Part shown: piece after piece, positions 30,162 through 60,285 of the stretch
Layout of the letters: each line of letters starts with the position of its first letter
Position numbering within the stretch: position 1 is the stretch's first letter
Assembly (NCBI GenBank): GCA_964642015.1
Contig: CAZXLF010000002.1
Location: forward strand, 2,717-66,716
Length of the DNA stretch: 64,000 nt
Direction: 5' to 3'
DNA from: an uncultured Planctomycetia bacterium
GTDB taxonomy: Bacteria; Omnitrophota; Gorgyraeia; 2-02-FULL-51-18
Translations under genes and position numbers: made by a program
Notes under the pieces: generated by a model
Databases searched by the model: none
Told to the model about the DNA's origin: nothing
The model's input: only the letters and a program-made list of their open reading frames with translations

Positions 30162-30941
30162 ATGCTAAGTATGATTTTAACTCCAAGTGTGACTCAGGCG
30201 GACGAAGCCCCTAAAGAATTGCCGGGCGGATGGCGGCTTGTGTGGCATGACGAATTTAACGGTGGTCAGCTGGATACTTCAAAATGGACGGCCGGAGATC
30301 TAGCTCTCAATACCGGCACAGTCGAATACTACACGCCCGAAGATATTTATGTACACGATGGTGTTTTAACGATTCGCAGCCAAAAACGTCCCATGGGAGG
30401 ACGCCAGTATACCTCAGGATTGGTGTCAACTTACGGTAAATTCGCAATAACCTACGGTCGATTCGAGATATGCACGAGACTTTCCAAGGGCCAGGGTATT
30501 TTGTCGGCACAAACGCTTATGCCCATTAATAAAAGTGGAAGTTGGTCTCCTCAGATCGATATTGCGGAACTTCTTGGTCATGAACCCAATAAGATCCATA
30601 TGCTGCACCAGTATGGCACCGTTGATAAACACAAACATTATGGCGGCGTCTATGTAGGTCCCGATTTTTCAAATGATTTCCACATTTTTGCGGTGGAATG
30701 GGAACCGGACGAGATAAGGTGGTATGTCGATGGGGCCATGCGTTTTTCGACTAAGGACAACATCCCACATATGCCTATGAATATTATTTTAATTACAGAG
30801 GTGGGCGGTGAATGGGCAGGTTCTCCGACAAAAAAGACCGTGTTTCCTCAATACCATGACATTGATTATGTGCGTGTGTACGCCAAAGCCAACACTAATA
30901 TTGAGATCGCGGGTTCCAAAATCTCTAAAAATGCTATATAA
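30162..30941 (+). CDS. Glycoside hydrolase family 16 (beta-glucanase/laminarinase-like), secreted
   Basis: 'GGWRLVWHDEFNG' and the catalytic 'SWSPQIDIAELLGH' (ExDxxE). An in-frame ATG at 30162 precedes a signal-like 'MLSMILTPSVTQA'. Confidence 0.65.
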   Translation: MLSMILTPSVTQADEAPKELPGGWRLVWHDEFNGGQLDTSKWTAGDLALNTGTVEYYTPEDIYVHDGVLTIRSQKRPMGGRQYTSGLVSTYGKFAITYGRFEICTRLSKGQGILSAQTLMPINKSGSWSPQIDIAELLGHEPNKIHMLHQYGTVDKHKHYGGVYVGPDFSNDFHIFAVEWEPDEIRWYVDGAMRFSTKDNIPHMPMNIILITEVGGEWAGSPTKKTVFPQYHDIDYVRVYAKANTNIEIAGSKISKNAI

Positions 30942-30987
30942 AAAAGATAAAATGAATGATAACCTATGCAATTACTATACTGCTCAA

Positions 30988-31803
30988 ATGCCGATTTTTA
31001 AATATAGGGTCCAAAGGTTGCTTGTTCCCGTGATGATATTGTGTTGTTTATCATTTTCCGATGCCGTCAAAGCGGATGTTCCGAAAGAGCTCGCCGGAGG
31101 ATGGCGGCTTGTGTGGCATGACGAATTTGATGGAAATAAGTTGGATAGCTCAAAGTGGGTCGCTGAAGACGCGGCGCTTGAGAAAAATAATGAGGGCGAA
31201 TATTATACGCCGGAAGACGTTTCCGTTCATGATGGGTTTCTGACTCTGCGCAGCGAAAAACGTGATATGGGCGGCCGTCATTATACGTCAGGTTTGGTTG
31301 AGACTCGCGGTAAGTTTGCAAGAGTTTATGGCCGCTTCGAGATCCGCGCCAAATTACCGAAAGGTCAAGGCATCTGGCCGGCACATTGGTTGATGCCGGA
31401 TGATGATAGTTGGCCGCCTGAGATCGACATCATGGAGCTTATCGGGCACTATCCGAATAGGATCTATATGACGAATCATTTCACGAGCGCTGAAGGCGGG
31501 CCCACGTGGCACGGCGACAGTTTTACGGGTTCGGATTTTTCCAAGGATTTCCATGTTTTTGCGGTGGAGTGGGAACCGGATGAAATAAGATGGTACATTG
31601 ACGGCGTTGAGAGATTCTCGACGAAAGAAAATATCCCCAATGTCCCTATGAGGATCATTTTAAATACCGCCGTGGGAGGTGATTGGCCGGGTTATCCCAC
31701 AAAGAAGACAGTTTTCCCGCAATTTCATGACATTGATTATGTGCGTGTGTACGCCAAGATCAATACCAGCATCGAATTTGCCGATCCCAAAGACTCTGCC
31801 TAA
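30988..31803 (+). CDS. Glycoside hydrolase family 16, tandem paralog
   Basis: 'GGWRLVWHDEFDG' and 'WPPEIDIMELIGH'. A signal peptide 'MPIFKYRVQRLLVPVMILCCLSFSDAVKA' starts at the in-frame ATG at 30988. Confidence 0.65.
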   Translation: MPIFKYRVQRLLVPVMILCCLSFSDAVKADVPKELAGGWRLVWHDEFDGNKLDSSKWVAEDAALEKNNEGEYYTPEDVSVHDGFLTLRSEKRDMGGRHYTSGLVETRGKFARVYGRFEIRAKLPKGQGIWPAHWLMPDDDSWPPEIDIMELIGHYPNRIYMTNHFTSAEGGPTWHGDSFTGSDFSKDFHVFAVEWEPDEIRWYIDGVERFSTKENIPNVPMRIILNTAVGGDWPGYPTKKTVFPQFHDIDYVRVYAKINTSIEFADPKDSA

Positions 31804-38516: not shown

Positions 38517-38981
38517 ATGAAAATCGTTGATTTCTTGAACGAAAAAGCGGTTACAGCGGATATTAAGGCCTCCAACAAAGAAGGAGTGATCAGAGAGTTG
38601 GTGGATCTTTTGGCGAAGGCGGAAGGTATAAAAAGCAAAGAAGATCTTGTCAAAACATTATTGAATCGCGAGGCGCTTGGCAGCACCGGAATCGGTCAAG
38701 GGGTCGGGATCCCTCATGGCAAAACCAATACGGTCAAGAAGCTTGTCGCTGCGTTCGGTATCTGCCACGAAGGTGTGAATTTTGATGCTTTAGACGGCGA
38801 ACCGGTTTATATATTTTTCTTGTTGGTCGCTCCCGAAGATTCAGCTGGACCGCATTTGAAGGCGTTGGCGCGGATATCCCGACTACTTAAAGATAAATTT
38901 TTCAGGGAATCTCTAAAATCTCTAACTGACGAAAAAGCCATTCTCAAGCTTCTCCGCGAAGAAGACGCTAAAAAGCCCTAA
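38517..38981 (+). CDS. ptsN: PTS EIIA-Ntr (nitrogen-regulatory IIA, fructose-type EIIA)
   Basis: 'KIVDFLNEKAVTADIKASNKEGVIRELVDLL...GIGQGVGIPHGKT' includes the His-phosphorylation region. Confidence 0.65.
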   Translation: MKIVDFLNEKAVTADIKASNKEGVIRELVDLLAKAEGIKSKEDLVKTLLNREALGSTGIGQGVGIPHGKTNTVKKLVAAFGICHEGVNFDALDGEPVYIFFLLVAPEDSAGPHLKALARISRLLKDKFFRESLKSLTDEKAILKLLREEDAKKP

Positions 38982-39076
38982 TCCTGCTTTCAAGGGAGCG
39001 TTCAATGATTTTAAGATTAATCGCGGGGTGAGGTGTGTTTATGATTTTGAAACTCTAATAAAGGTATTAAAGATCT

Positions 39077-40330
39077 ATGGGGTTATTTAAGTGGTTATAT
39101 CCGGGCATGCGGGTGAAGCGTTGGGTGTTTTTGTGCTGCTTCGGTATTATTTTGTGTTCGATGGGTTTTGTCCTGACAGTCATGGAAGCTCAAAAGACAA
39201 GCGGAAGTTTGATAGTTCTGCTGGGTGTAGGTCTTGTCGCGATCAGCATTCGCAAGATCATTAAATCTGTGGTGACGGTACTTTTGCCTCAAAGGGAGAA
39301 CGAGCTTGTCAACATTATGTATCAGAAGAGGTATCTGGAAAGAGGGGCGAAGGTCGTCGCGATCGGAGGAGGTTCGGGGCTATCCGTACTTTTGCACGGC
39401 TTAAAACAATTCACCTCGAACATCACAGCGGTGGTCACTGTTGCTGATGATGGAGGCTCTTCCGGACGATTAAGAAGCCAATTCAATATGCCTCCTCCGG
39501 GAGATATAAGAAATTGCCTGGTTGCTTTGGCTGATGCGGAACCCATGATGAGCGACCTGTTTCAATTCCGTTTTCAGGAATCCGGCGAACTTGAAGGACA
39601 TAATTTTGGCAATCTCTTTATTTTGGCTATGCTCAAAGTCACAGGCGATTTTGAAAAGGCGATCAAAGAATCCAGTAAGATCCTTGCGATCCGCGGCCGT
39701 GTGGTGCCATCGACGCTGAAGAAAGTAACACTTTTGGCACAGCATAAGGACGGCACGCAAACCAAAGGCGAAAGCAACATTTCCAAAGTAAAGAATCCTA
39801 TCGAGCGCTTATATTTAAAACCGGAAGGATGCAGCGCGACTGAAGATGCGCTTCAAGCGATACAAAATGCTGATGCCATTGTTATTGGTCCCGGCAGTTT
39901 GTATACGAGCATCTTGCCGAATCTTTTGATCGAAGATCTTGCTGCGGCTTTGGCGCGGACCAGCGCGCCTAAAATTTATATATGCAACGTCATGACTCAG
40001 CCGCATGAAACAGATCATTTCAGTGTTTTTGATCACGTGAATACGATCATTGAACATACTCGGCCGGATATTTTGAGCCATGTGTTGGTGAACACCGGCC
40101 ATTTGCCTCAGAGTATTTTAAAAAAATATGAGGCGGAGGAAGCGTTTCCTGTTGTCGTGGATGTTCCGAAGGTGAAGAGCCTGGGCTATTCGATCATCGA
40201 AGCAAATATCGTCAACTGCGTGGACACGATCAGACATAATCCTAGAAGAGTGTCGAAAGTGATCATCGATATTATTAATTCTACAAAAAAGAAAATCACC
40301 GACGAAAAGAGAAAAAAAGAGAATCATTGA
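39077..40330 (+). CDS. yvcK: YvcK / UPF0052 (CofD-like gluconeogenesis factor) family protein with an N-terminal two-TM extension
   Basis: 'VVAIGGGSGLSVLLHGLKQFTSNITAVVTVADDGGSSGRLR' is the YvcK signature. The first ~70 aa are hydrophobic. Confidence 0.65.
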   Translation: MGLFKWLYPGMRVKRWVFLCCFGIILCSMGFVLTVMEAQKTSGSLIVLLGVGLVAISIRKIIKSVVTVLLPQRENELVNIMYQKRYLERGAKVVAIGGGSGLSVLLHGLKQFTSNITAVVTVADDGGSSGRLRSQFNMPPPGDIRNCLVALADAEPMMSDLFQFRFQESGELEGHNFGNLFILAMLKVTGDFEKAIKESSKILAIRGRVVPSTLKKVTLLAQHKDGTQTKGESNISKVKNPIERLYLKPEGCSATEDALQAIQNADAIVIGPGSLYTSILPNLLIEDLAAALARTSAPKIYICNVMTQPHETDHFSVFDHVNTIIEHTRPDILSHVLVNTGHLPQSILKKYEAEEAFPVVVDVPKVKSLGYSIIEANIVNCVDTIRHNPRRVSKVIIDIINSTKKKITDEKRKKENH

Positions 40331-42321
40331 TGGTAAAACCATACAAGAATCTGATCATTTGCGTGCACTCGCATCAGCCGGTAGGCAATTTCGATAATGT
40401 TTTCGAAGAAGCGTACCAAAAATCTTATAAGCCCTTTTTTGAGGCATTTGAAAGACACGCTTCCATTCCTTTGTCTTGCCATTTTTCAGGCAGTTTGATC
40501 GATTGGCTTGAGAAACATAGGCCTGAATTCATACAGCTTCTCAAGAAAATGTCCGATCGGGGGCAGATCGAATTTGTCGGCGGCGGATATTACGAGCCGA
40601 TCTATGGATTGATCCCTAAAAAAGATTTGCAGGGCCAGATCAGTATGATGTCCGAAAAGATCCGGGAGTTGTTCGGAAAAAAATTCGAAGGCGTGTGGCT
40701 GACCGAACGCGTGTGGGACCCGGATTTGGTAACGCCTCTCAAAAAAGCAGGCATTCAATTCACTATTCTTGATGATCTGCATTTTGAAAAGGCGGGGTTG
40801 GCTGCGCCGATCAAAGGATATTATCAGACCAAACAAGGTAAAGATTCTTTAGATCTTTTTGCCTCGATGAAACAATTGAGATATTTAATGCCCTTTAGGA
40901 AAGCCGAAGAAACTTTTCATTTTATTCATGCGACTGAAGCCGGACCTCAGGATGTTTTTGTTTTCGCCGATGACTGCGAAAAATTCGGCATGTGGCCAGG
41001 CACCTATGATTGGGTTTATAAAGAGGAATGGCTGGACAAATTTTTAAAACTTCTTGAAAAAGATGAAGTAGTTAAAGCGTGCTCGTTCAAGGATTGCCGC
41101 CAAAGTTTCGGTCCAAAAAGTGTTGTAAAGATCCCCCACGCGAGTTACAGCGAAATGATGGAATGGTCTGACGGAAATTTTTACAATTTTATGAAAAAAT
41201 ATCCGGAAAGCCGGTATATGCGTGATCGGATGTGGGCGGTCAGCGAAGCTGTTGGGAGCATATCTTCGAGCAACGGTTCATTTGAGAAAGCGCGTTCCGC
41301 CAAAGCGGCTCTTTACCGCGCGCAGTGCAATTGTTCTTACTGGCATGGTGTGTTTGGTGGCCTTTATCTGCATCATTTGCGGTCAGCCGTGTTCGAAAAT
41401 CTTATTCAGGCGGAACATTACCTTTGCCAGATCGATAAAAAACGCTTTAAAAAAGAGTCCGCTCTTATTTATCCTGAAAAACTTGAATCCGGTCAGCGAT
41501 GGAAGATAGCGCAGAAAGATCTTGTGAGTTTTTTTAACGGTGCATACGGCGGAGCGCTTGAGGAATTGGATACTATCCCAAAACATGTGAACTTGATGTG
41601 TAATCTTCAGCGGCGTAAAGAAAAGTATCACGAAGTGGCTATGAAAAAAAGTTCTGAAGGCACTAGCGGGTCAGAACCTCTTTCGATCCATGAATTGCTC
41701 GGAAACAAAGAGAGTGGACTTGAACAGCACCTTCATTACGATCTTTTCCGACGGCTTTCGTTCATGGATCATTTCTTTCGCGAAGCGTTGATACCGGATG
41801 AGTTCGCAAAGTCCTCTTATTCCGAAGCCGGTGATTTTATAGCAGCTTCGTATAGAGCCGCCATTCATTCCCGAAAAGGAGTCAAAGAACTGAGTTTCGA
41901 GAAAACTGGCCAAGTATTTCTGGATCGTAAAAAATATCCTGTAACTGTGAATAAAATTATTTCTCCCAAAGGATCTTCGGCGTTAAAAGCACATTATTTA
42001 ATCACTAATCGCGGCACCGCTGTGCTAAGGTGCGCATTCGGAGTGGAATTCAATTTTTCTATAGGCGACAGCCAGGCGATGAAAGGACTCGACCAGAAGG
42101 GGATCAGGGAATGGATTTTTAACGATTCGTGGCGGGACATACGGATCGAACTTCACTCTAAGGAACCCATGGATCTTATCGCGGTCCCCGTGGACACGGT
42201 GTCGGAATCTGAATCAGGTTTGGAGAAGACCTACCAAGAATTAGGTGTTTTGCTTCAAAAAAATATTGTTTTAGATCCCAAACAAACCTTAGAACAGGTT
42301 TTGGAGCTAAGCGTCGTTTGA
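40327..42321 (+). CDS. Glycoside hydrolase family 57 (alpha-glucan-active)
   Basis: 'LIICVHSHQPVGNFDNVFEEAYQKSYKPFFEAFERHASIPLSCHFSGSLIDWLE' is the GH57 N-terminal catalytic block. Confidence 0.6.
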   Translation: MMVKPYKNLIICVHSHQPVGNFDNVFEEAYQKSYKPFFEAFERHASIPLSCHFSGSLIDWLEKHRPEFIQLLKKMSDRGQIEFVGGGYYEPIYGLIPKKDLQGQISMMSEKIRELFGKKFEGVWLTERVWDPDLVTPLKKAGIQFTILDDLHFEKAGLAAPIKGYYQTKQGKDSLDLFASMKQLRYLMPFRKAEETFHFIHATEAGPQDVFVFADDCEKFGMWPGTYDWVYKEEWLDKFLKLLEKDEVVKACSFKDCRQSFGPKSVVKIPHASYSEMMEWSDGNFYNFMKKYPESRYMRDRMWAVSEAVGSISSSNGSFEKARSAKAALYRAQCNCSYWHGVFGGLYLHHLRSAVFENLIQAEHYLCQIDKKRFKKESALIYPEKLESGQRWKIAQKDLVSFFNGAYGGALEELDTIPKHVNLMCNLQRRKEKYHEVAMKKSSEGTSGSEPLSIHELLGNKESGLEQHLHYDLFRRLSFMDHFFREALIPDEFAKSSYSEAGDFIAASYRAAIHSRKGVKELSFEKTGQVFLDRKKYPVTVNKIISPKGSSALKAHYLITNRGTAVLRCAFGVEFNFSIGDSQAMKGLDQKGIREWIFNDSWRDIRIELHSKEPMDLIAVPVDTVSESESGLEKTYQELGVLLQKNIVLDPKQTLEQVLELSVV

Positions 42322-42620
42322 TGTTTATCAAAAAAAAAATTAAAATAAGCAGTACCCAAGGCTTGCACGCCAGGCCTGCATCCATATTTGTGCGTATTGC
42401 AAATAAATTCGAATCGGATATTGTGGTAAAAAAAGGTTCTGAAAGTGTCAACGGAAAATCGATCATGGGACTTTTAGTGTTGGCCGCCAATCAGGGCAGC
42501 ACGATCGAGATCGAGATCAGCGGGCCCGATGCCCAGCAGGCCATGGATGAGCTTGAATATTTTTTGTTGCATGACCCGGAAAACGATGGCAAAGAATTGG
42601 ATAGTGGACAGAAAGATTAA
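42318..42620 (+). CDS. ptsH: Phosphocarrier protein HPr
   Basis: 'GLHARPASIFV' (His15 site) and 'GKSIMGLLVLAA' (Ser46 region). Confidence 0.8.
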   Translation: MMFIKKKIKISSTQGLHARPASIFVRIANKFESDIVVKKGSESVNGKSIMGLLVLAANQGSTIEIEISGPDAQQAMDELEYFLLHDPENDGKELDSGQKD

Positions 42621-42623
42621 ACA

Positions 42624-44375
42624 ATGAAAACGATCAAAGGTATCGCCGCATCACCAGGAGTTGCGATCGGCAAGGCTTTCTTGCTGGACAGCGAAGACAT
42701 GGTGATCTCCAAAAAGATCATCAAGGAGTCTATGATCCCCAGGGAGATCGCGCGTTTTGAAGAAGCGCTCACTAAAACCCGGGCGGAAATCTTGGGCATC
42801 CGAGACAAAATTTCTCAGGAAATAGGTCAGGAACACGGCAATATTTTTAACGCCCATCTTTTGGTCATCGAGGACCGCGCGCTTATAGAAGAAGTAATCG
42901 GCCGGATCAAGAAGGAAAAGGTCACCAGTGATTACGTGTTTTCCCAAGTCCTTAAGAAATATATTCAGTCTTTCCTGAACATCGATGATGAGTATATCCG
43001 TGAACGTGTCAGCGATATCAATGACGTCGGCCGCCGAATCATCAGACATCTGGTCGGGGGGCAAAGAGCTTCGTTGAGTGATTTGAAGGAAAAGGTGATC
43101 GTGATCGCGTATGATCTTTCTCCGAGCGATACAGCAGTGATGCACCGCCGGAACGTGATCGGCTTTGCGACGGATATCGGCGGACGCACTTCTCATACCG
43201 CTATCATGGCCAAATCCCTTGAGATACCGGCGGTCGTCGGTATTGAATTTGCCACAAGACAAATCAAAAGCGGCGACATGCTGATCGTGGACGGCAGTCA
43301 GGGAGTCGTGATCATCAACCCGACCGCAAGCGAGCTTCAGAAATACAAACAGGAGCTGATCCGCTATCAGGAGTTCGGTAAGGGACTCAAAAAATTAAAA
43401 GATTTGCCATGCATAACTTCGGATGGCAGACGCATCGAATTATCAGCCAACATTGAAATGCCTGAAGAAACAATCTCCGTGCTTTCGCACGGCGCCGACG
43501 GCATCGGACTTTACCGTACCGAATTCTTGTACATGAACCGCACGGATCTGCCTTCCGAAGACGAGCAGTATCATGCGTACCGGAAAGTCGTGAAAGAAAT
43601 GGCTCCAAAGCCGGTCATCATCAGAACGTTCGATCTCGGGGGAGACAAGTTTTTATCCCATCTTGAGATGCCTCGGGAAATGAACCCTTTCTTGGGATGG
43701 CGTGCGATCCGTTTTTGTTTAGCGCGGCCTGAAATCTTTAAAGTACAGCTCAGAGCGATCCTCCGCGCCAGCGCGCACGGAAAGCTTCGCATGATGTATC
43801 CGATGATCTCAGGGCTTGGGGAATTAAAAGAGGCCAACAAAGTTTTAGAAGAAGTTAAGGTAGAACTTCGCTCTAAAAAGGTCAATTTTGACGAAAATAT
43901 CGAAGTCGGCGCTATGATCGAGATCCCATCCGCGGCGATCGCATGCGATATCCTGGCGCCGGAGGTGAATTTTTTTAGTATCGGCACCAATGATTTGATC
44001 CAATATGCCTTGGCCGTTGACAGGATCAACGAAAAGATAGCGTATCTTTATGAACCTGCTCACCCGGCTGTTTTACGGCTTATCAAGAACATCATCGATA
44101 CGGGCCATTCGAAGCATATTTGGATCGGCATGTGCGGCGAGATGGCGGGCGATCCTGTTTTGACCCCTATCTTGATAGGTCTTGGTATCGATGAGATATC
44201 GACCTCTCCTTTAATGCTTCCTGAGGTCAAGAAGATCATCCGTTCGATGAATTTTGAGGAGTCCAAAAAGATCGCTCAGCATGCTTTGGATCTGCCCACC
44301 GGCCAGGAAGTCGTCAGATATTTAAAGATAAAGAACGAAGAGATCGCTAAAAGGTCACAAACAAAAACCAGATAG
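42624..44375 (+). CDS. ptsI: Phosphoenolpyruvate–protein phosphotransferase (Enzyme I)
   Basis: 583 aa with 'GGRTSHTAIMAKSLEIPAVVG' (active-site His) and a PEP-utilising C-terminal domain. Confidence 0.8.
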   Translation: MKTIKGIAASPGVAIGKAFLLDSEDMVISKKIIKESMIPREIARFEEALTKTRAEILGIRDKISQEIGQEHGNIFNAHLLVIEDRALIEEVIGRIKKEKVTSDYVFSQVLKKYIQSFLNIDDEYIRERVSDINDVGRRIIRHLVGGQRASLSDLKEKVIVIAYDLSPSDTAVMHRRNVIGFATDIGGRTSHTAIMAKSLEIPAVVGIEFATRQIKSGDMLIVDGSQGVVIINPTASELQKYKQELIRYQEFGKGLKKLKDLPCITSDGRRIELSANIEMPEETISVLSHGADGIGLYRTEFLYMNRTDLPSEDEQYHAYRKVVKEMAPKPVIIRTFDLGGDKFLSHLEMPREMNPFLGWRAIRFCLARPEIFKVQLRAILRASAHGKLRMMYPMISGLGELKEANKVLEEVKVELRSKKVNFDENIEVGAMIEIPSAAIACDILAPEVNFFSIGTNDLIQYALAVDRINEKIAYLYEPAHPAVLRLIKNIIDTGHSKHIWIGMCGEMAGDPVLTPILIGLGIDEISTSPLMLPEVKKIIRSMNFEESKKIAQHALDLPTGQEVVRYLKIKNEEIAKRSQTKTR

Positions 44376-52361: not shown

Positions 52362-52658
52362 ATGGATACGAAAGATCTGATCTTTTCAAAAAATCCCAAT
52401 TTTGTCTTCCGCCAGATAGCCGGTGAGTCTTTATTGATCCCGATCCGAAAAAAACTGAATCAAGTGAACAGTCTTTACGTCTTAAATGAGACAGCGGCCG
52501 CTTTTTGGAACCGGTTGGACGGCCAATGCTCCATAAACCGCATTTTGAATGATCTCACGCAGGTATTCGATGTGTCACTCGAGCAACTTGAGCAAGATAC
52601 GTCAGTGTTGGTCCAGGATCTTTTGAGCATCGAGGCTATTCAAGAAGCCATTTCTTAA
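52362..52658 (+). CDS. PqqD-family RiPP recognition element (peptide chaperone)
   Basis: 'FRQIAGESLLIPIRKKLNQVNSLYVLNETAAAFWNRLDGQCSINRILNDLTQVFDVSLEQLEQDTSVLVQDLLSIEAI' is a strong PqqD pattern. Confidence 0.75.
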   Translation: MDTKDLIFSKNPNFVFRQIAGESLLIPIRKKLNQVNSLYVLNETAAAFWNRLDGQCSINRILNDLTQVFDVSLEQLEQDTSVLVQDLLSIEAIQEAIS

Positions 52659-52675
52659 TTCTAAAAAATGGAAGA

Positions 52676-53575
52676 ATGGATAAAATAGATCTAAAAATTC
52701 CCAGCCATTATCCACTTCACTGCCAATGGGAAATCACCTGTCGATGCAATTTGCGCTGTGTGATGTGCTACACCGATTGTTTTAATACGCCGCAAAAGAT
52801 CAAAGAAGAGCTGTCTACGGCGGAGATACTTCGGATCATGGGCGAGCTTGCTGAGGCGGGATGTCTTGAGCTGACGCTCACCGGAGGCGAACCTTTCGCA
52901 AGGCCTGATTTTTTTGAGATCTATGATTACGCGAAAGAAAAAGGCTTTCTTATCATCATATTTTCTAACGGAACCTTGATCACTGAAAAGATCGCCGATC
53001 GCTTTGCTATAAATCCGCCCGAGCGCATCGAAATCAGTTTTCACGGTCTTACCGAACGATCCTTTGAAGCGATCACAAAGGGGGCTGGTTCCTACCATAA
53101 ATGCCTGGAAGCGATCCGTTTGCTTCTGGAGCGCCGCATTCCGCTTGTCTTAAAAAGTGTGGCGATGACGGTCAACAAGGATGAAGTTCTGGCGATCAAG
53201 AAATTCTCTAAAGAGCTGGGGCCTGTGGTTTATCATCTCGGCGAAGAAATACGGATGGCCATCGACGGAGGTGAAGCGCCTTTTCAATATCAGCTTTCCG
53301 AGCAAGAACTTGAAACGATCCACCGGCAGGATCCGGCTATTTGGAAAGAGGCTTGTTGCAAAAAAGAGTCTCCTGTACCTGTTTGTCAAAGCGCGAGGCA
53401 AAATTTTCACATTGATGCCTATGGGCAGCTTCAACGCTGTTCGGGTAACCGCTTGGCGAGCTATGACCTGCGCTCAGGCTCATTCAAAGAAGGTTTTTAT
53501 CGATTTCTTCAAGATTTTCCTTGTCCGGCAAAGTGCAATGAAGCGGTAAAAACGGAAATTTATGGGTTGTTATGA
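52676..53575 (+). CDS. Radical SAM enzyme with a C-terminal Cys-rich SPASM/twitch-like domain (rSAM-1)
   Basis: 'CQWEITCRCNLRCVMCYTD' carries the CX3CX2C motif. The C-terminal Cys run is 'CCKKESPVPVCQSA...RCSGN...CPAKC'. Confidence 0.75.
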   Translation: MDKIDLKIPSHYPLHCQWEITCRCNLRCVMCYTDCFNTPQKIKEELSTAEILRIMGELAEAGCLELTLTGGEPFARPDFFEIYDYAKEKGFLIIIFSNGTLITEKIADRFAINPPERIEISFHGLTERSFEAITKGAGSYHKCLEAIRLLLERRIPLVLKSVAMTVNKDEVLAIKKFSKELGPVVYHLGEEIRMAIDGGEAPFQYQLSEQELETIHRQDPAIWKEACCKKESPVPVCQSARQNFHIDAYGQLQRCSGNRLASYDLRSGSFKEGFYRFLQDFPCPAKCNEAVKTEIYGLL

Positions 53576-54693
53576 TCTTAAATCCGAATAAGATCTCCAA
53601 AATGGAATATGGTGATTTTAGTCTTAACATTCATGAGAAGGCCGGCACAGAATGCGTGATCAAAGCGCAGATGGAACTTACTTACCGCTGCAATCTCCAT
53701 TGCCGTCATTGTTATACCGACCCTTTCAATCGTAAGGAGTATTTCCCTAAAGAAATGGAATTGGCGGAGGTTAAAAGGATTCTTGATGAAATGGCGGCGT
53801 TGGGGATCTTATGGCTTAACTTCACCGGCGGCGAAGCGTTGATGAGAAAGGATTTCTTTGAGATCTATGATTACGCGTGGGCTAAAGGTTTTATTTTGAC
53901 GCTTTATACCAACGGCACCATGATCACTGAATCGGTGATCAACAAATTAAAAGATAAACCGCCGTTTTTTATCGATGTCTCATGTCACTCGATAACCGAA
54001 GAGAGTTTTGATTGGTTTACGCAAGTCAAAGGGTCGTTTCGTCATTTTCTCAAGAGCATGGAACTCTTGAAAGCGAGCGGCTTGCCTTTCCGGATGAAAA
54101 CGATCGGGATGAATTGGAACAAGAAAGAGCTGCCGTACATAAAGGAATATGTCGAATCTTTTGGGATTTCCTTTCATCCAACCACAGCTCTTTATCCAAG
54201 ATTAACCGGCGATCTTGAGCCTTTGAAATTGAGGCTTTCTCCTGAGGAAGCGGTCGATCTGCAGGTTGGATCAGAGGTATTTCAGGAAGATGAATGTCTT
54301 GACTCAGACTCTGTTTACAGCACTATTCCAAACCGACTTTATCGCTGTACTTGCGCGACTAATGCGATCCATATCAACGCATGGGCGGAACTTGGCACCT
54401 GCGGGTTGGAATATGAGGCCAGAGCTTCTCTTCGAGAATATTCTTTAAAGGAGGCTATCTCACAGGTTTTTGAGAAAGTTCGCTCGCTCAGGTTTGAAAC
54501 AAACACACCTTGCCGGGATTGTTCGCTATTCTCATTTTGCAACAAAAAGCCGACCTCTGCGCGTTGGGAATTCAAAGACCCCCAGAGGGCGAATCCTTAT
54601 GAATGTGATGTAGCTTTTTTAAAAGCGTCGCGGTTAACAGGTAAAACACAAATGCACCCGTTAAAAAAAGAGGAGAGTGGCTATGCCGGATAA
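53572..54693 (+). CDS. Radical SAM enzyme with a SPASM-like C-terminal domain (rSAM-2)
   Basis: 'YRCNLHCRHCYTD', and C-terminal 'CTCATNA...GTCG...CRDCSLFSFC'. It is paralogous to rSAM-1 ('FFEIYDYA..KGF...ysNGT.IT'). Confidence 0.75.
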   Translation: MILNPNKISKMEYGDFSLNIHEKAGTECVIKAQMELTYRCNLHCRHCYTDPFNRKEYFPKEMELAEVKRILDEMAALGILWLNFTGGEALMRKDFFEIYDYAWAKGFILTLYTNGTMITESVINKLKDKPPFFIDVSCHSITEESFDWFTQVKGSFRHFLKSMELLKASGLPFRMKTIGMNWNKKELPYIKEYVESFGISFHPTTALYPRLTGDLEPLKLRLSPEEAVDLQVGSEVFQEDECLDSDSVYSTIPNRLYRCTCATNAIHINAWAELGTCGLEYEARASLREYSLKEAISQVFEKVRSLRFETNTPCRDCSLFSFCNKKPTSARWEFKDPQRANPYECDVAFLKASRLTGKTQMHPLKKEESGYAG

Positions 54694-54865
54694 AAAGAAG
54701 TACATTACGCCTCAAATATTTGAGGTCCCGTTAAGGCAAGAACAGGCTGTGCTTACTAGTTGCAATACTAATTGGTCCAATTCTACATCCGGCGGAAATG
54801 GCAAGTGCACCAGCGGTGGATGTAAAAATGGAGGAGGGACCAATAATGCAAACCCTCCATCTTAA
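54683..54865 (+). CDS. Candidate RiPP precursor peptide, 60 aa: MPDKKKYITPQIFEVPLRQEQAVLTSCNTNWSNSTSGGNGKCTSGGCKNGGGTNNANPPS
   Basis: A Shine–Dalgarno 'aggagag' lies 7 nt upstream of the ATG (an alternative GTG is at 54677). The charged/hydrophobic leader is followed by a Gly/Ser/Thr/Asn-rich core with 3 Cys, 1 Trp and 2 Lys. The gene sits between rSAM-2 and the kinase. Confidence 0.7.
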   Translation: MPDKKKYITPQIFEVPLRQEQAVLTSCNTNWSNSTSGGNGKCTSGGCKNGGGTNNANPPS

Positions 54866-54889
54866 ACGCTTATTTCAAGACTAGTCCAA

Positions 54890-55783
54890 ATGCTGATTTC
54901 ATTGGGGATTGGCGGCTATAAAGTTTCAATAGAAGAGCCTAGAGATCGTTTCTGCTTTTTTTGGCCTCTTGCTAGATTTGAACCATTTCTTTCTAATGAA
55001 ACAGCGAATTCAGATATCACTGTTAAAGTCCATATCGTTAAAAAACTAGCAGTGCTTAATAATGAAAATTTGATCTTTGATTCCGGAATAGGTTATTGGA
55101 AACTTTATGATAATGGGCCTAAGGGTTATTTATTTGAAAGTTGCCGTGCAGAGAATGGCCGGCTTTTTTTGCAAGCGGCCATATCGCATGATCTTTCAGA
55201 GGTTGAAGTGACCGTCAAAGAAACCCGCATGAAAGGTAGTGCGCGCGGCGGTTGGGGGCCTGCCACTATTATCAGTCCGCTTCTCGAATTTGTGCTTCAG
55301 GAGAAACTTGCTAGAGATGGCGGCGTGATGCTTCACAGCTCCGCAATATTGGCAGAAAATGAAGTGCTTGTTTTTTTTGGCCCTTCCGGTGCCGGTAAAT
55401 CAACAGCGGCAAATTTTTTTCTGAATAAAGGATATACAGTTCTCAATGATGAGCGCGTGATCATCCGGCGGGAAGGCGACGAGTTTAAAGCATATGGTAC
55501 TCCATGGCCCGGTTCAAGTTTTCTTTATTCGGGTGCACAGGGTCGAATGAGACAGATTTTTAAAATCGGCCATGGGCAGGGAAAGCATATGTTAAATAAA
55601 ATGTCGACCAGAGTAATGATGGCCACTTTATTTCAAGAGGCCTACTTGCCCCATTGGACCGTGATGGGAATGGATAAAACAACTCGTTTTTTTGAGGAAC
55701 TGGCAACTACTTTTGGTTCTCTTGAACTTTTATTTTGTAAATCTTCGGATATCGTTGACTTCCTAACAGAAATTTTTTTTTAA
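54890..55783 (+). CDS. HprK-related P-loop kinase (HPr kinase C-terminal-domain-like)
   Basis: 'VLVFFGPSGAGKSTAANFF' Walker A. Its size and context match 7961..9028. Confidence 0.55.
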   Translation: MLISLGIGGYKVSIEEPRDRFCFFWPLARFEPFLSNETANSDITVKVHIVKKLAVLNNENLIFDSGIGYWKLYDNGPKGYLFESCRAENGRLFLQAAISHDLSEVEVTVKETRMKGSARGGWGPATIISPLLEFVLQEKLARDGGVMLHSSAILAENEVLVFFGPSGAGKSTAANFFLNKGYTVLNDERVIIRREGDEFKAYGTPWPGSSFLYSGAQGRMRQIFKIGHGQGKHMLNKMSTRVMMATLFQEAYLPHWTVMGMDKTTRFFEELATTFGSLELLFCKSSDIVDFLTEIFF

Positions 55784-55796
55784 TGCGAGTCATTTA

Positions 55797-56843
55797 ATGA
55801 AAATTTTAAACGAGAATATTCTCTATCAATCCGTCGCTTTAGGTTCAAAGACCGAAAAGATACCTTCAAAAGTTTTATTTGAGTTAACTTATGGCTGCAA
55901 TTTCCGCTGCGTACATTGTTATAATCCCACACATCAGGCGCGGCCTGAAGAGCTTTCAACAAAAGAAATACATCGAATCTTAAATGAAATTGCAGACTTG
56001 GGTGTTTTATCTATCATTTTTACAGGCGGGGAATTATTTACACGTCCTGATATTTTAGAAATTCTCGAGCATGCCAAGCGATTAGGGCTTTTAATCGACA
56101 TTTTTACCAATGCGAGCCTGTTAACAGACTTGATCGTTAAAAGGCTTGATGAATTAGGGATCCGCGACATGGTCGTTTCGATTTATGGAACGACTCCGTC
56201 CACATTTGAAAAGGTCACTCGTCAAGCGAACTCTTATGAGCGTTTCTTGCGTGGAATCGTGGCGCTTGCAAAATCCTCTTTGAATGTCCACATTCGAATT
56301 CCTCTATTAACTTTGAATAAACATGAAGCCGAGACCGCCAAACTGTTTGTCGAAAGTATGGGATTTCCGTTTCGCTTTTATCTTGAAATTGAGCCTCGCC
56401 AAGATGGTAATCAAGAACCGTTGCAGTACAATCTTAATGCGGGTGAAAAAATGGATATTTTAAAAAGATTACGTCCAGAGGCTTTGGAAAAACCTCCTTT
56501 TGAAGAAAAGCAATTTTCAACGGATTTTATTGAATGCGCTTGCGGTAAGGAACAGTTCGCAGTGACTCCCTACGGAAAAATGAACTTTTGCGTTTCTTTT
56601 CCAACACCGAATTATGACTTGCGCTGCGGTACCGTCAAAGAAGGCTGGCAAATACTTCAGAAATTGGTCCGAGAAGCTAAACCCAATGAAAATTATCATT
56701 GTCCTGGCTGTGACGTCCGGTCGTTTTGCCAGCAAGGTCGTAGCGATGCCTGGCTCGAAACAGGCGACATGAGCGTATGCCTCCCACGTTTTAAAGAAGC
56801 CGCCACTCTTCATAAGACAGCGGTCATTCATAAGACGATCTGA
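55797..56843 (+). CDS. Radical SAM enzyme with a SPASM-like C-terminal domain (rSAM-3)
   Basis: 'YGCNFRCVHCYNP', and C-terminal 'CACGKEQ...CVSF...RCGT...CPGCDVRSFCQ'. Confidence 0.75.
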   Translation: MKILNENILYQSVALGSKTEKIPSKVLFELTYGCNFRCVHCYNPTHQARPEELSTKEIHRILNEIADLGVLSIIFTGGELFTRPDILEILEHAKRLGLLIDIFTNASLLTDLIVKRLDELGIRDMVVSIYGTTPSTFEKVTRQANSYERFLRGIVALAKSSLNVHIRIPLLTLNKHEAETAKLFVESMGFPFRFYLEIEPRQDGNQEPLQYNLNAGEKMDILKRLRPEALEKPPFEEKQFSTDFIECACGKEQFAVTPYGKMNFCVSFPTPNYDLRCGTVKEGWQILQKLVREAKPNENYHCPGCDVRSFCQQGRSDAWLETGDMSVCLPRFKEAATLHKTAVIHKTI

Positions 56844-56955
56844 TGAGGGTCTGTAGCCGGATGGGCTGGTTGATTTTAAGATTGTTTTATTGGTTGCGTT
56901 CAAGCATACCAGCGTTTTTTAATGAGGGCGGTGCCAACTTCGCTGCGCTGTACCC

Positions 56956-57777
56956 ATGATCAATCTGTTACAATCCACGGAATCAGATGGAAGATTTTCC
57001 TTGCAAGAAATAATACAAACAGAGGATTCCGATCTGTCGCTTACTTTTAAGACGGCTGGTTGGAGCATGTTTCCTACGTTAAGGAACAATGACTGCATTG
57101 AGCTTTCGAGAATCCAAGATTACGAAGTAGGAGATCTTGTTGTTTTTCGTCAAAATAACAGGTTAATTTGCCACCGCATCTCAGAGATTCATTTGAATGG
57201 CCGGATACGGACGAGTAGTATCGGAGGTGAACATTTCATTCGGCAAAACGATATTTTGGGCAAAGTCAATTCGATCATTCGAGGCAAAAACCATTTTTGT
57301 CCTTCGAAAACCCAGAAAAAACTACAACTATTCGATCGTTTTTGGATCCATTTGAATATAAATTTAGAAACTATTCAGAATAAGTGTCGTGAATTAATGT
57401 TTGATGTATTTGTTTTGATCAACCGGATCCTGATCTTTAATCAGATCATTTTATTTTTTATGAATAAAAACGTTCACTATTCGATCGGTTCTAAAGCTCA
57501 GGTTGGTCCATTGGATTGCTACCGATTGATTCCTGTTCAGAAAAAGCTCACGCAAGGTTCGATGATTGCGTTAAAGGAAAGTCTAAAAAATGGTAAAGAC
57601 TGTTCAATCCTTGTCGCGCAATTGGCAGGACGTTATGCGGCGACTTTTGAATTTGCTTCAGGCAAAGTATGGCTTCATGACCGTCTAAAAATTACGAATT
57701 TCAAAGCAGAGATTTCACGCTTTGCAGAAAAACTGTGTCACGAATTGAAAGGATATTGTGAACTTAGCGGTGATTGA
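56956..57777 (+). CDS. S24/S26-type serine peptidase domain (signal-peptidase-I/LexA-like) fused to a ~180-aa uncharacterised C-terminal domain; candidate leader peptidase
   Basis: 'TAGWSMFPTLRNNDCIELSRIQDYEVGDLVVF' matches the G-x-SM-x-PTL catalytic-Ser box of S26/S24 peptidases. Confidence 0.5.
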   Translation: MINLLQSTESDGRFSLQEIIQTEDSDLSLTFKTAGWSMFPTLRNNDCIELSRIQDYEVGDLVVFRQNNRLICHRISEIHLNGRIRTSSIGGEHFIRQNDILGKVNSIIRGKNHFCPSKTQKKLQLFDRFWIHLNINLETIQNKCRELMFDVFVLINRILIFNQIILFFMNKNVHYSIGSKAQVGPLDCYRLIPVQKKLTQGSMIALKESLKNGKDCSILVAQLAGRYAATFEFASGKVWLHDRLKITNFKAEISRFAEKLCHELKGYCELSGD

Positions 57778-58558
57778 AGCAACAAATCTAACAAAAACCT
57801 ACTCAGCCGGCACGGGATTATTGGACTGGCTTTTTCGGAATTCATCTATGAAGCCAAAAACAACGGCTCTCAACGGTGTAAATTTACGCATCGAGAAAGG
57901 CGAAATCATCACTTTGCTTGGGCCTAACGGCGCAGGCAAAACGACCCTCATAAAAATTTTAGCCGGTCTTATGACTCCGGACAGTGGTAACGTTAATATT
58001 TGCGGTTTTGACACGGTCAAAGATCTTGCGAAAACTAAACAGTGCGTGAGTCTAGTGCTGGGTGAAGAGAAGAGTTTTTACTGGCGGCTTACAGGACGTC
58101 AAAATCTCGAGTTTTTTGGAATTCTTTACAATCTTTCAAGAGATCGCATCCGCCAAAAGATCAAACAGGCGGCCGAGCTTCTTGACCTCGATCTGGACAA
58201 ACGCTACCAGGAATGTTCGACGGGTATGAAATTTCGTCTGGCGCTGGCGCGTGGATTTTTGAGCGATGCAAAATTGATCCTGATGGATGAACCGACTAGA
58301 AGTTTGGATCCTAATGTAGCAAACCGGCTGAGGGAATTGATCAAAACAATGCGTAACGAGAAAGGATGCGCGTTTTTTTTCGCCACACACGATGTCCATG
58401 AGGCCGAAACGGTCGCCGATAGGATTGTAATCTTGGATCAGGGAAAGATCAGGGCAAGCGGAAGATTGAGCGATCTAAGAAATATTTTAGGGAACAATGA
58501 GGCATCAGTGGAAGATATCTTTCAGCGTGTGACCATCGAGGATCAGTATGTTTTTTAG
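57758..58558 (+). CDS. ABC transporter ATP-binding protein
   Basis: Walker A 'GPNGAGKTT', Q-loop, signature-like 'CSTGMKFRLALARG', Walker B 'ILMDEPT'. Confidence 0.8.
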   Translation: MNLAVIEATNLTKTYSAGTGLLDWLFRNSSMKPKTTALNGVNLRIEKGEIITLLGPNGAGKTTLIKILAGLMTPDSGNVNICGFDTVKDLAKTKQCVSLVLGEEKSFYWRLTGRQNLEFFGILYNLSRDRIRQKIKQAAELLDLDLDKRYQECSTGMKFRLALARGFLSDAKLILMDEPTRSLDPNVANRLRELIKTMRNEKGCAFFFATHDVHEAETVADRIVILDQGKIRASGRLSDLRNILGNNEASVEDIFQRVTIEDQYVF

Positions 58559-59357
58559 AAAATTTTTTGCGATCATATACCGCGATGCGCTCGAAGCATT
58601 AAGTTACAAAACCGCATTTTTTACCGATTTATTAGCGATGACAGCACAGCTCTTGATCTTCTTTTTTGTGGGGCGCATGATCGGGCCGCAGGCAGCCCCG
58701 TTTCTTAGTGAATATGGCGGTGAGTATTTTCCATTCGTGCTTATTGGTATTGCTGTCGCAGGGTTTTGTATGGCCGGTACGAACAGCTTCACTGGTACGA
58801 TCATGAAGGAGCAGGGCGACGGAACGCTTGAGGCCATTTTTGTGACCCCGACCTCTCTTGGTGTATTCATGTTCACGGGATTTATTCGGACATTCGTTTC
58901 AAGCTCCTGTCGGGTATTTGTGTTTTTATTGATGGGGTTGTTATTTTTTAAGATACGTTTACCTATGGTTAACATCCCGGTTTTCTTGCTTCTTCTGGTC
59001 TTGTCGATGGTCGTTTTTGGAAGTTTTGGGCTTTTTTCAGGAGGAGCATTGCTCGTGCTTAAAAGAGGTGATCCTTTCACGCATTTGTTCAATGCCGCTT
59101 CTCGTTTTCTTGCAGGCGTTTATTTTCCTGTTACGCTTCTGCCGCTGTGGCTTCAAAAGGTTTCTTTATGGATGCCGATGACCTATGCGCTTCAGGCGAT
59201 AAGAAAGGCGGTTCTAATCGGTGCCTCTGTTCATGATCTGCAGGCGGAGATGATCACACTGGCGCTTTTTTCGGCCGTTTTATTTTTTTGCGGCATAGCT
59301 TTTTTTAACTGGTGTTTTGAGAAAGCTCGAAAGGAAGGATCCCTTGCTTTCCGCTAA
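58548..59357 (+). CDS. ABC-2 type transporter permease
   Basis: 269 aa with six TM helices. Its start overlaps the ATPase gene end. Confidence 0.65.
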   Translation: MFFRKFFAIIYRDALEALSYKTAFFTDLLAMTAQLLIFFFVGRMIGPQAAPFLSEYGGEYFPFVLIGIAVAGFCMAGTNSFTGTIMKEQGDGTLEAIFVTPTSLGVFMFTGFIRTFVSSSCRVFVFLLMGLLFFKIRLPMVNIPVFLLLLVLSMVVFGSFGLFSGGALLVLKRGDPFTHLFNAASRFLAGVYFPVTLLPLWLQKVSLWMPMTYALQAIRKAVLIGASVHDLQAEMITLALFSAVLFFCGIAFFNWCFEKARKEGSLAFR

Positions 59358-60285
59358 ACCATTTTTGGAAGAAACTTTTTCCACGAACCACTTGGATTAC
59401 GAACGTGTGCTTACCCGAAACCGCAGGAGGCTTGATTTCCTTTTGGAGCTCGAAAGCGATCTAGCGATGGAGAACGTTGATCTTTTACCTTTAAAAGGGA
59501 TGGATCTTTTAATACGCGCTTATCCCTCGCTGGGAATGCGCCCGATGACTGATATTGATCTCCTCATCCATAAAAAAGACATCCCAAAAGTGAAGCGGTT
59601 GCTGGAGCATAAAGATCTGCAATGGTCCGCTGATGAGAACCTTAGCTACTATGACCCCAATTCTTTTATCATTTTAGATATCGTTTGGAATGTCTGGTAC
59701 ATGCCGGACTCGCGGCCGGTTTGGCAGCGTTCATCGCTTTATGCGACAAATGAAGGCAAAGCATTAAAATTGATGCATTCCGAAGATGCTTTGACCTATT
59801 TGATCGCTTATACGATAGCGCATCGCACAGAAATAAATTCTATTTTTTTACAAGACCTCAAATTTTTTTTGGATAAAGAATCCCATAAAATTGATTGGGA
59901 CCACTGGGCTTCAACAGTGAAAAACCTTCACTTAGGCCCAACAGTTTTTTATGGGTTGTCTTACGTCAGAAAAAGTGGGCTCGAAAGCATTCCGGAAGAA
60001 ATAGTTTGTAAACTTCGTCCAACCTCCTATGCGGAAAAAAAATTAAATTTTTATTATCAAAATGTTTTGGAACTAAAAAAAAAGCCGGCGAATTATTTGC
60101 GGACTTGGCTAAGTTATCCGGGATGGAGAGGTAAAATAAAGCTATTACGTATTAAATTTTTGCCTTCCAAATGGCAATTTGAATTGCGTTTTGGACGAAA
60201 AAGCTGGTTAAAATACCTGATTTTTTGCTTCGCCCATCCTTTCTGTGTATTATTCCGTGCCCTCACTGGCCCTTTTATTGAATAA
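59317..60285 (+). CDS. Nucleotidyltransferase family protein, PF14907-like
   Basis: 'VDLLPLKGMDLLIRAYPSLGMRPMTDIDLLIHKKDIPKV' carries the same motif as 4421..5572 and 10261..11358. Confidence 0.55.
   Translation: MRKLERKDPLLSAKPFLEETFSTNHLDYERVLTRNRRRLDFLLELESDLAMENVDLLPLKGMDLLIRAYPSLGMRPMTDIDLLIHKKDIPKVKRLLEHKDLQWSADENLSYYDPNSFIILDIVWNVWYMPDSRPVWQRSSLYATNEGKALKLMHSEDALTYLIAYTIAHRTEINSIFLQDLKFFLDKESHKIDWDHWASTVKNLHLGPTVFYGLSYVRKSGLESIPEEIVCKLRPTSYAEKKLNFYYQNVLELKKKPANYLRTWLSYPGWRGKIKLLRIKFLPSKWQFELRFGRKSWLKYLIFCFAHPFCVLFRALTGPFIE

Follow-up and report, generated by a model that had tools for sequence, protein, structure and literature searches.

The window analysed here, a 64-kb (64,000-nucleotide) stretch of contig CAZXLF010000002.1 assembled from an uncultured Planctomycetia bacterium, harbours two genes encoding P-loop kinases that resemble HPr kinase (HprK), which we designate K1 and K2. 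Both open reading frames (ORFs) are present with the P-loops quoted in a first-pass annotation of the sequence, and in each the P-loop is set within an extended HprK-like block. K1 is encoded in a run of ten plus-strand genes (52362-60285) with gaps of at most 112 nt, the K1 operon. In addition to the kinase, the operon encodes a RiPP recognition element (RRE; RiPP, a peptide made by the ribosome and modified after translation), radical S-adenosylmethionine (SAM) enzymes, a precursor peptide, a peptidase, a transporter and a nucleotidyltransferase (NTase). The genes of the K1 operon, followed by K2, are as follows.

52362-52658, plus strand: PqqD-family RRE (PF05402, E 3e-13)
52676-53575, plus strand: radical SAM enzyme 1, 299 aa (PF04055, E 6.7e-25)
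53572-54693, plus strand: radical SAM enzyme 2, 373 aa, with a Cys-rich C-terminal region (PF04055, E 1e-22)
54683-54865, plus strand: precursor peptide, 60 aa (MPDKKKYITPQIFEVPLRQEQAVLTSCNTNWSNSTSGGNGKCTSGGCKNGGGTNNANPPS), with a GAGGAG Shine-Dalgarno sequence 7 nt before the ATG; a called gene on the source contig
54890-55783, plus strand: K1, 297 aa, P-loop GPSGAGKST; ScmC-family kinase with a phosphoenolpyruvate carboxykinase (PEPCK)/HprK fold, predicted precursor-peptide Ser kinase
55797-56843, plus strand: radical SAM enzyme 3, 348 aa (PF04055, E 8.9e-25)
56956-57777, plus strand: S24/S26 archaeal-type protein resembling signal peptidase I, predicted leader peptidase analogous to LppS (top NCBIfam match TIGR02228 sigpep_I_arch; PF00717)
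57758-58558, plus strand: ABC transporter ATPase (PF00005, E 6.7e-27)
58548-59357, plus strand: ABC-2 type permease (PF01061, E 9.1e-13)
59317-60285, plus strand: NTP_transf_5 NTase of the PsmN/LppN type (PF14907, E 6.7e-27; DxD motif DIDLL); gene-caller start 59344
7961-9028, minus strand: K2, 355 aa, P-loop AGKSGSGKST; HprK-like kinase of a second family

The best NCBIfam matches of radical SAM enzyme 1 were of the NirJ2/AhbD/ScmE/MftC type, all far under their cut-offs. Radical SAM enzyme 2 aligns to positions 7-323 of the 339 positions of the mycofactocin maturase model, and its closest solved structures are SkfB and PqqE. Those of radical SAM enzyme 3 are PqqE (E 5.8e-15) and SkfB, a relative that forms thioethers. 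In the S26-like protein, the SMxP (S37) and HR (H73) motifs are invariant across six cassettes. Genes resembling Wza and Wzc of polysaccharide export lie downstream of the operon. Promoter and terminator scans of the 51-61 kb region gave results no better than those from shuffled sequences. As a check for horizontal transfer, GC content was calculated, and proved uniform (0.43-0.455) over both kinase loci and the region encoding phosphotransferase system (PTS) proteins.

Each kinase had been described as lying next to a PqqD gene and a PF14907-type NTase gene. For K2 this is correct with respect to PqqD, which is directly upstream, the PF14907 gene at 10261-11358 lying one gene beyond. K1 is near both genes without immediate adjacency, as three genes separate it from PqqD and four from the NTase.

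K1 and K2 in the PEPCK/HprK superfamily

A bare Walker A motif is weak evidence, since the ABC ATPase of the K1 operon carries one too. In K1, the P-loop (G164-T172) is preceded by a His residue (H149) about 15 residues upstream and followed by an acidic pair (D187-E188) about 17 residues downstream. The corresponding elements in K2, at the same approximate distances, are G185-T193, H170 and D208-D209. When 30 relatives of K1 and 33 of K2 were aligned, the His residue, the P-loop Lys-Ser/Thr and the acidic pair proved invariant or almost invariant in each family. Both kinases display the catalytic-domain fold of HprK/P, with its His, GxSGxGKS and acidic-pair (DD) motifs, and residues 169-219 of K2 align with the catalytic core of the Lactobacillus casei HprK.

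HprK-related families are indeed catalogued: NCBIfam contains ScmC, ScmD, ScmE, ScmF, HprK_rel_A and HprK_rel_B, and Pfam contains PF27840. The top-ranking NCBIfam models were HprK_rel_B, HprK_rel_A and ScmC for K1, and HprK_rel_A, the HPr(Ser) kinase model TIGR00679 and HprK_rel_B for K2. Towards HprK_rel_A and HprK_rel_B (TIGR04352 and TIGR04355, each with a cut-off of 200 bits), the scores were 25.4 and 27.8 bits for K1 and 32.8 and 30.8 bits for K2. TIGR00679 (cut-off 240 bits) matched K2 at 31.5 bits and left K1 unmatched, and the same was observed with PF07475 (30.0 bits for K2 against 33.3). The ScmC model TIGR04249 (cut-off 125 bits) gave 18.6 bits with K1. As for the N-terminal half, neither protein matched the HprK N-terminal domain PF02603, and in both the N-domain aligns with that of PEPCK; PEPCK_ATP scored 15.6 bits against a cut-off of 26.5. 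Family profiles matched HprK and PEPCK sequences outside the P-loop as well, and a check for a better fit to unrelated P-loop kinases came out negative, in agreement with the placement in the HprK/PEPCK P-loop superfamily suggested earlier. K1 and K2 both retain a PEPCK-like architecture of two domains, with an HprK-like catalytic core. In contrast to ATP-dependent PEPCK, they are about half its size and are found in a context of peptide modification.

The first-pass annotation had also regarded K2 and K1 as copies of one another. With BLASTP, the two share 30% identity across only 91 aa around the P-loop, so that the term overstates their kinship; a profile-profile comparison brought out homology along both domains, over 259 columns (98% probability, E 2.5e-14). 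On sequence grounds, K1 and K2 are members of two different families and not recent paralogues. K1 carries the precomputed Pfam assignment PF27840 'ScmC' (E <= 1e-5), as do nearly all of its relatives. Searching 1.84 billion representatives with a profile yielded 2,957 clusters with E <= 1e-30, or 14,018 with E <= 1e-10, the former number indicating that the family is large. K2 homologues mostly carry PF27840 (faint in two loci inspected) and/or PF07475. At least 418 members of the K2 family were found in a word-indexed search, several of them fused to a family 2 glycosyltransferase (GT2) domain (P0073, P0140, P0152, P0180 and P0184).

The NCBI protein corresponding to K2 (P0068, 300 aa) begins 55 codons downstream of the start of the long ORF. 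The longer form is backed by its homologues and by the AlphaFold2 model, in which residues 24-42 form a helix with a predicted local distance difference test score above 90, and the 300-aa call is probably too short. When position 9028 is taken as the start, K2 has 74 nt in common with the end of the PqqD gene.

The precursor peptide and K1-type cassettes

K1 relatives in other genomes occur in a recurring set of genes consisting of PqqD, one to three radical SAM enzymes, a small ORF, the kinase, an S26-like peptidase and often NTP_transf_5. The metagenome-assembled genomes (MAGs) with such cassettes are labelled Omnitrophica, Nitrospiraceae, Schekmanbacteria, Deltaproteobacteria and Pseudomonadota. 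The gene order of the K1 operon is repeated in the Omnitrophica-labelled locus L001, in the Nitrospiraceae-labelled loci L004 and L005 and in an ENA contig (L003), and shorter cassettes with a single radical SAM gene are found in L017-L020. A homologous RRE heads the cassettes of L001, L003, L004 and L017-L020. In L004, the NTase is fused to the S26-like peptidase. We did not count L001 among the cassettes with a peptidase, because the small S26 profile matched an annotated GNAT gene there and the match is unreliable. A contig scan with a narrower K1 alignment was swamped by the generic P-loop pattern and left only five distant loci; the kinase-like genes in all five adjoin an NTase and/or a PqqD gene. 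Co-occurrence with PqqD and PF14907 genes was seen in many other genomes.

Two further observations concern these cassettes. In L018 (1-1233), L019 (1-4942) and L020 (1-5385), a gene for a huge Peptidase_C25 (gingipain-like) surface protein is situated directly upstream of PqqD. In L021 (2641-9211), an ScmC-family kinase, NTP_transf_5, an S26-like peptidase and an ABC-2 transporter are found in a cluster of the GT1/GT2/AsnB type that carries no PqqD or radical SAM gene, indicating that a module of kinase, NTase and peptidase is able to exist without an RRE.

The 60-aa precursor of the K1 operon contains a YxxP motif in its leader (Y7-P10), Cys residues at positions 27, 42 and 47, and a C-terminal Ser (Ser60). 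A profile made from four precursors retrieved 34 database homologues, and with three peptides from diverged cassettes added, 39 distinct sequences were obtained. All share the leader KKxYxxPx[IL][FY]xVxLxxEQAIL. The YxxP motif is invariant, a Cys residue occurs 20 residues past its Tyr in 38 of 38 sequences, and three Cys residues are present in 35 of the 39. The C-terminal residue is Ser in all but one (38/39), with a variable residue before it (P, L, Q, T, A or G); the sole exception departs midway from near-identical relatives and looks frameshifted. The peptides of L018-L020 terminate in GIGS, GAGS and ASGS. The C-terminal Ser is the only invariant hydroxyl residue among the precursor homologues. 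What is conserved here is the residue, and its phosphorylation is a prediction.

Phosphorylation had been considered unusual chemistry for a RiPP, a view that does not hold: peptide phosphorylation by HprK homologues is already known, and no new chemistry is involved. PadeK, PsmK and proteobacterial kinases phosphorylate the C-terminal Ser side chain of lasso peptide precursors, including those of paeninodin and pseudomycoidin, in some cases several times (PMC8498205, PMC6993621). The acidic pair of PsmK is essential, as the D158A/D159A protein is inactive (PMC6993621). PsmN, described as an 'uncharacterised NTP transferase', is needed for the addition of one or two hexoses to the phosphate (PMC8498205, PMC6993621), and in lasso clusters the NTase is sometimes fused to the leader protease B2 (PMC8498205). 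The K1 operon resembles the systems of PadeK, ThcoK and PsmK in its HprK-superfamily kinase with an acidic pair, the C-terminal Ser of its precursor, its NTase and its RRE (B1 in lasso clusters), and the NTase-peptidase fusion of L004 resembles the NTase-B2 fusions. Unlike lasso clusters, neither kinase locus contains a match to Asn_synthase (cyclase) or a transglutaminase core (B2), and the leader peptidase is S26-like.

The other related system is that of the linear polyphosphorylated peptides (LPPs), encoded by LppA/K/B/S/D/N of Paenibacillus alginolyticus (Popov et al., May 2026; PMC13381572). LppK polyphosphorylates Ser3 of the core, 18 residues past the Tyr of YxxP, a motif that binds the RRE in lasso and LPP leaders alike. 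LppS is a TIGR02228-type leader peptidase with Ser, His and Asp residues whose cleavage requires the RRE, and LppN is an NTP_transf_5 protein (Supplementary Data 2). LPP clusters are embedded in capsule loci rich in glycosyltransferases, and LPPs are described as restricted to Bacillota, radical SAM enzymes being unmentioned. In the supplementary table, TIGR02228, PqqD and NTP_transf_5 are assigned and the kinases rarely match Hpr_kinase_C (PMC13381572), just as K1 and K2 miss the Hpr_kinase_C thresholds. The K1 operon contains all five of a signal-peptidase-I-like peptidase, a stand-alone RRE, a kinase resembling HprK, NTP_transf_5 and a transporter, its leader carries YxxP, and it is located within a polysaccharide/glycosyltransferase locus. 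This likeness is one of family-level matches (TIGR02228, PqqD and NTP_transf_5). With respect to the LPP consensus YxxPxVLxHQxIxFETxxS, the K1-type precursors contain YxxPx[IL] and differ in the remainder (..FRVxLNxEQAILSACS). Further differences are that the K1 operon adds three radical SAM enzymes; that its core is short and conserved, with three Cys residues and an invariant C-terminal Ser, whereas LPPs have variable C-termini and Ser3 as the acceptor; that its exporter is of the ABC-2 type instead of MsbA-like; and that it is hosted by a diderm and has relatives in MAGs labelled Nitrospiraceae, Omnitrophica and Deltaproteobacteria. The K1 locus is probably related to the LPP and phosphorylated lasso systems, with radical SAM enzymes as an elaboration, and occurs outside Bacillota.

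The catalogued bioinformatic counterpart is the SynChlorMet cassette (TIGR04248-04251, PF27840). K1 is assigned to Pfam ScmC, its operon combines PqqD with three PqqE-like PF04055 radical SAM enzymes as such a cassette does, and ScmC, ScmD, ScmE and ScmF were all among the NCBIfam matches of the corresponding genes; the K2 operon has only PqqD. On the other hand, the equivalog scores are far under the cut-offs (the ScmC value given above; ScmD, 24 against 100; ScmE/F, 56-92 against 400). Our literature search found no experimental work on SynChlorMet or ScmC, the latter term returning unrelated acronyms.

Taking these systems into account, K1 probably phosphorylates the precursor, with Ser60 the likeliest site. 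We favour Ser60 because it is the only invariant hydroxyl residue and because the C-terminal Ser is kept in L018 and L019, whose peptides lack both Ser and Thr at positions +18 to +21, counted from the YxxP Tyr. A less likely candidate, though one to be taken seriously, is Thr25/Ser26, which precede Cys27 at +18/+19 and would be modified in the manner of LppK, the C-terminal Ser being retained for some other purpose, for instance recognition by a radical SAM enzyme or the exporter. The acceptor of LppK is indeed near the leader-core junction and not at the C-terminus (PMC13381572), and among the K1-type precursors the residue at this equivalent spacing (+18) is Ser in 29 of 38, while that at +21 is Ser in 32 of 38. 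In the remaining nine of 38, however, Thr, Ala, Gly or Val occupies position +18; Thr, which LppK did not accept (PMC13381572), is the residue in the window peptide. In addition, the YxxP peptide next to a distant K1 relative, in an LPP-like cluster on a Butyrivibrio plasmid, ends in Trp; the acceptor position clearly varies from one subfamily to another. As for the earlier suggestion that a Ser/Thr-rich core is phosphorylated, a peptide remains the best reading of the substrate; diffuse phosphorylation does not agree with a single invariant Ser at the C-terminus.

In the pathway that we propose, the RRE would bind the YxxP motif of the 60-aa precursor, and the radical SAM enzymes would then modify the core, probably at the three conserved Cys residues. 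With ATP as the donor, K1 would phosphorylate a Ser hydroxyl once or several times, most likely that of Ser60 and alternatively at Thr25/Ser26. The NTP_transf_5 enzyme may subsequently place a hexose-type group on the phosphate. Finally, the S26-like peptidase would remove the leader and the ABC-2 pump would export the product, beside the Wza/Wzc genes.

It is also conceivable, though very improbable, that phosphorylation by K1 is transient, the phosphorylated Ser being converted to dehydroalanine, to which a Cys adds to form a thioether, so that the mature product is free of phosphate. The core does combine three conserved Cys residues with conserved Ser residues, and a logic of kinase action followed by elimination is established in class III and IV lanthipeptide synthetases. 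No lyase or cyclase domain was found in the K1 operon, however, and radical SAM enzymes are present to handle the Cys residues. Moreover, the NTP_transf_5 partner in the pseudomycoidin system acts on a phosphate that is retained (PMC6993621).

The K2 operon and its RRE tail

K2 is encoded in an operon of five minus-strand genes (7235-11358) in the order NTase, GT2, PqqD, K2 and GT2. Further NTase, PqqD and GT2 genes lie in its neighbourhood, together with a cupin gene.

10261-11358, minus strand: NTP_transf_5 NTase, first gene of the K2 operon (PF14907, E 1.5e-30; DVDII motif)
9486-10196, minus strand: GT2 glycosyltransferase, 236 aa (PF00535, E 6.6e-33)
8955-9410, minus strand: PqqD/RRE with a conserved C-terminal tail (PF05402, E 6.4e-14)
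7235-7954, minus strand: GT2 glycosyltransferase, 239 aa, 6 nt past K2 (PF00535, E 1.5e-37)
4421-5572, plus strand: second NTP_transf_5 gene of the K2 neighbourhood (PF14907, E 2.7e-33; DLDIL motif)
2599-2994, minus strand: third PqqD/RRE gene, 131 aa, with a degenerate tail (YKKPTMKRYEQLHEIGVGS; PF05402, E 5.1e-15)
11556-13016, plus strand: double GT2 glycosyltransferase, divergent from the K2 operon (PF00535 in two stretches, E 4.2e-68)

The DxD motif is kept in all three NTases of the window. No radical SAM gene and no leader peptidase were found in the K2 operon, the lack of a peptidase setting it apart from LPP clusters.

The PqqD proteins of K2 cassettes are about 150 aa in length in place of the usual 95 or so, and the extra sequence is a common C-terminal tail. 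In the window RRE it occupies residues 107-136 (F107-Q-T-P-V-M...K114-Y-T116-D-M...D-P-I-H-D-V-D...G-W-P136), and it is kept in L007, L008, L022 and 70 distinct metagenomic homologues. The motif among these 70 is F-x-x-P-x-L-x-K-[YF]-[T49/S18/E3]-D-M-[QE]-[DE]-LLLL-D-P-[IV]-H-x-V-D-[ED]-x-G-W-P. It opens with a leader-like aromatic-x-x-Pro-x-Leu and has one conserved hydroxyl position, corresponding to Thr116. No Pfam or NCBIfam model spans the tail.

A metagenome scan with the RRE tail retrieved 286 relatives, from which 80 loci (L024-L103) were kept. In 40 of the 44 loci with enough sequence, the RRE-tail gene has K2 directly downstream; GT2 genes come next in 24 of 27, and an NTase is present in nine of the ten long loci. 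Profiles of K1 and of the S26 peptidase gave zero matches in the 80 loci. The cassette was also found in the Terriglobales-labelled L007, in an ENA contig with a K2-GT2 fusion (L008), and on a Crinalium epipsammum PCC 9333 plasmid, the kinase there being named 'HPr kinase' in RefSeq. The K2 locus is a distinct and widespread cassette of RRE-tail, kinase, GT2 and NTase.

We speculate that the substrate or docking peptide of K2 is the tail fused to its own RRE, with Thr116 as the acceptor. A wider proposal, which we offer with considerable doubt, is that the K2 cassette constitutes a self-contained protein priming system. The RRE protein would bring its own leader-like FxxPxL and, at its C-terminus, a 30-residue 'core' under strict conservation, K2 would phosphorylate the Thr/Ser at +9 (Thr116), and NTP_transf_5 together with two to four GT2 enzymes would build a phosphate-linked glycan; the K1 peptide, crosslinked by radical SAM enzymes, phosphorylated at its C-terminus and encoded beside Wza/Wzc, would be a second glycan-bearing peptide. 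If this were the case, the K2 RRE-substrate fusion would be a peptide anchor or primer for a surface glycopolymer, and LPP-like phospho(glyco)peptides would be pan-bacterial and linked to exopolysaccharides instead of a speciality of Bacillota.

Several other features of this region were observed. The third PqqD protein (2599-2994) ends in Gly-Ser, resembling the short ScmC-cassette precursors that end in GIGS, GAGS and ASGS. GT2 units of about 235 aa, at 7235-7954(-), 9486-10196(-) and 11556-13016(+), have in common a C-terminal K-[AG]-S-[ILV]-D-R-[KRQ] motif and, after it, a basic tail. The start of the window holds a second copy of the GT2 gene at 3226-4320 (1-950 versus 3426-4375; 89-100% identity over segments). 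A 129-nt stretch is 99% identical between 5517-5645 and 7126-7254, the 3' flanks of the NTase gene at 4421-5572 and the GT2 gene at 7235-7954, and the minus-strand ORFs 5601-5726 and 5723-5938 look like a remnant in which a GT2 C-terminus is joined to an NTase N-terminus. Past the end of the window on the same contig, after Wza/Wzc, a PqqD gene (98 aa), a gene for a 246-aa protein and NTP_transf_5 are found (L009, 19055-20894); with one more of each, this stretch of the genome contains at least four PqqD and four PF14907 genes. In L006, a 3.7-Mb contig, a tandem array repeating about every 98 bp (11540-12530) lies directly downstream of a K2 homologue, and no PqqD, GT2 or NTase was called near that homologue.

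Function of the kinases and the PTS genes

Considering the two loci together, we judge it fairly probable that K1 and K2 serve RRE-guided peptide modification and not the PTS, with K1 phosphorylating the precursor and the K2 cassette carrying out a related phosphorylation and glycosylation. A number of results weigh against this. K1 and K2 score at 17-33 bits, far under every curated cut-off, and the second acidic residue is Glu instead of Asp in K1 and its closest relatives. NTP_transf_5 is absent near the kinase in L018 and L019, and LppN was inactive in a heterologous host (PMC13381572). A search for a separate K2 precursor found none: the small ORFs with a terminal Ser appeared random, and when small ORFs of the window, L007 and L008 were compared all-versus-all, only antisense GT2 frames and local duplications came out. 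Finally, in three of the 70 tails the proposed acceptor is replaced by Glu, and L008, at least, retains the kinase, which weakens a simple acceptor model.

Another explanation is that K1 and K2 act on a sugar, a lipid-linked glycan or a nucleotide in exopolysaccharide synthesis, or that they serve as ATP-binding scaffolds and have no kinase activity. Glycosyltransferase and polysaccharide-export genes surround both loci, the L021 cluster includes the kinase without PqqD, K2 homologues occur as GT2 fusions, and the whole-protein fold of both is nearest to PEPCK, a small-molecule kinase. We nevertheless consider this improbable, as almost every locus has an adjacent RRE gene, the kinase of K1-type cassettes is immediately preceded by a conserved precursor gene, the catalytic residues are conserved in both families, and the characterised relatives with the same gene set are peptide kinases.

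Phosphorylation of HPr had been raised as a further possibility. The window does encode HPr, as had been reported, along with other PTS proteins.

42318-42620: HPr (PF00381, E 1.9e-29), with the 'GLHARPA' (His15) and 'NGKSIMG' (Ser46) contexts kept
42624-44375: Enzyme I
38517-38981: EIIA-Ntr

Likewise as reported, no canonical HprK was detected among the scanned window ORFs of at least 120 aa, nor in the precomputed Pfam assignments. The kept Ser46 context, the absence of a canonical HprK from the window and the closeness of the K2 sequence to the HprK catalytic core would fit a role of K1 or K2 as a stand-in for HprK/P. We give this hardly any credence. Neither kinase gene is near ptsH or ptsI (K1 is about 12 kb and K2 about 33 kb from ptsH), both proteins have a PEPCK-like N-domain in place of that of HprK and lack linkage to the PTS, the TIGR00679 results given above are far from the cut-off, and the cassettes are conserved across phyla with RRE, NTase, peptidase or GT2 genes. 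Furthermore, the contig is about 352 kb long, of which the window represents only 64 kb, so that a canonical hprK may lie elsewhere.

Peptide modification by K1 and K2 would be of interest in several respects. Phosphorylated RiPPs are rare, and HprK-type peptide kinases have so far been demonstrated solely for lasso peptides and the Bacillota-restricted LPPs. The window suggests that a module of RRE, kinase, S26-like peptidase, NTase and exporter, part of a very large family with some 3,000 clusters at 50% identity, is present in distant diderm lineages and can be combined with radical SAM cross-linking. The invariant C-terminal Ser provides a concrete candidate acceptor, and the K2 operon represents another widespread cassette, one whose RRE carries a fused conserved peptide. 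As both cassettes are situated in polysaccharide loci, they bear on the purpose of such phosphopeptides.

The region 38517-44375 forms a string resembling a nitrogen PTS, consisting of EIIA-Ntr, a CofD/YvcK-like gene, a GH57 glucanotransferase, HPr and Enzyme I, with no HprK or RapZ-type gene inside it. Elsewhere in the window, two overlapping tandem ORFs of the GH16 family (29955-30941 and 30808-31803) may represent a pair of paralogues or a single frameshifted gene.

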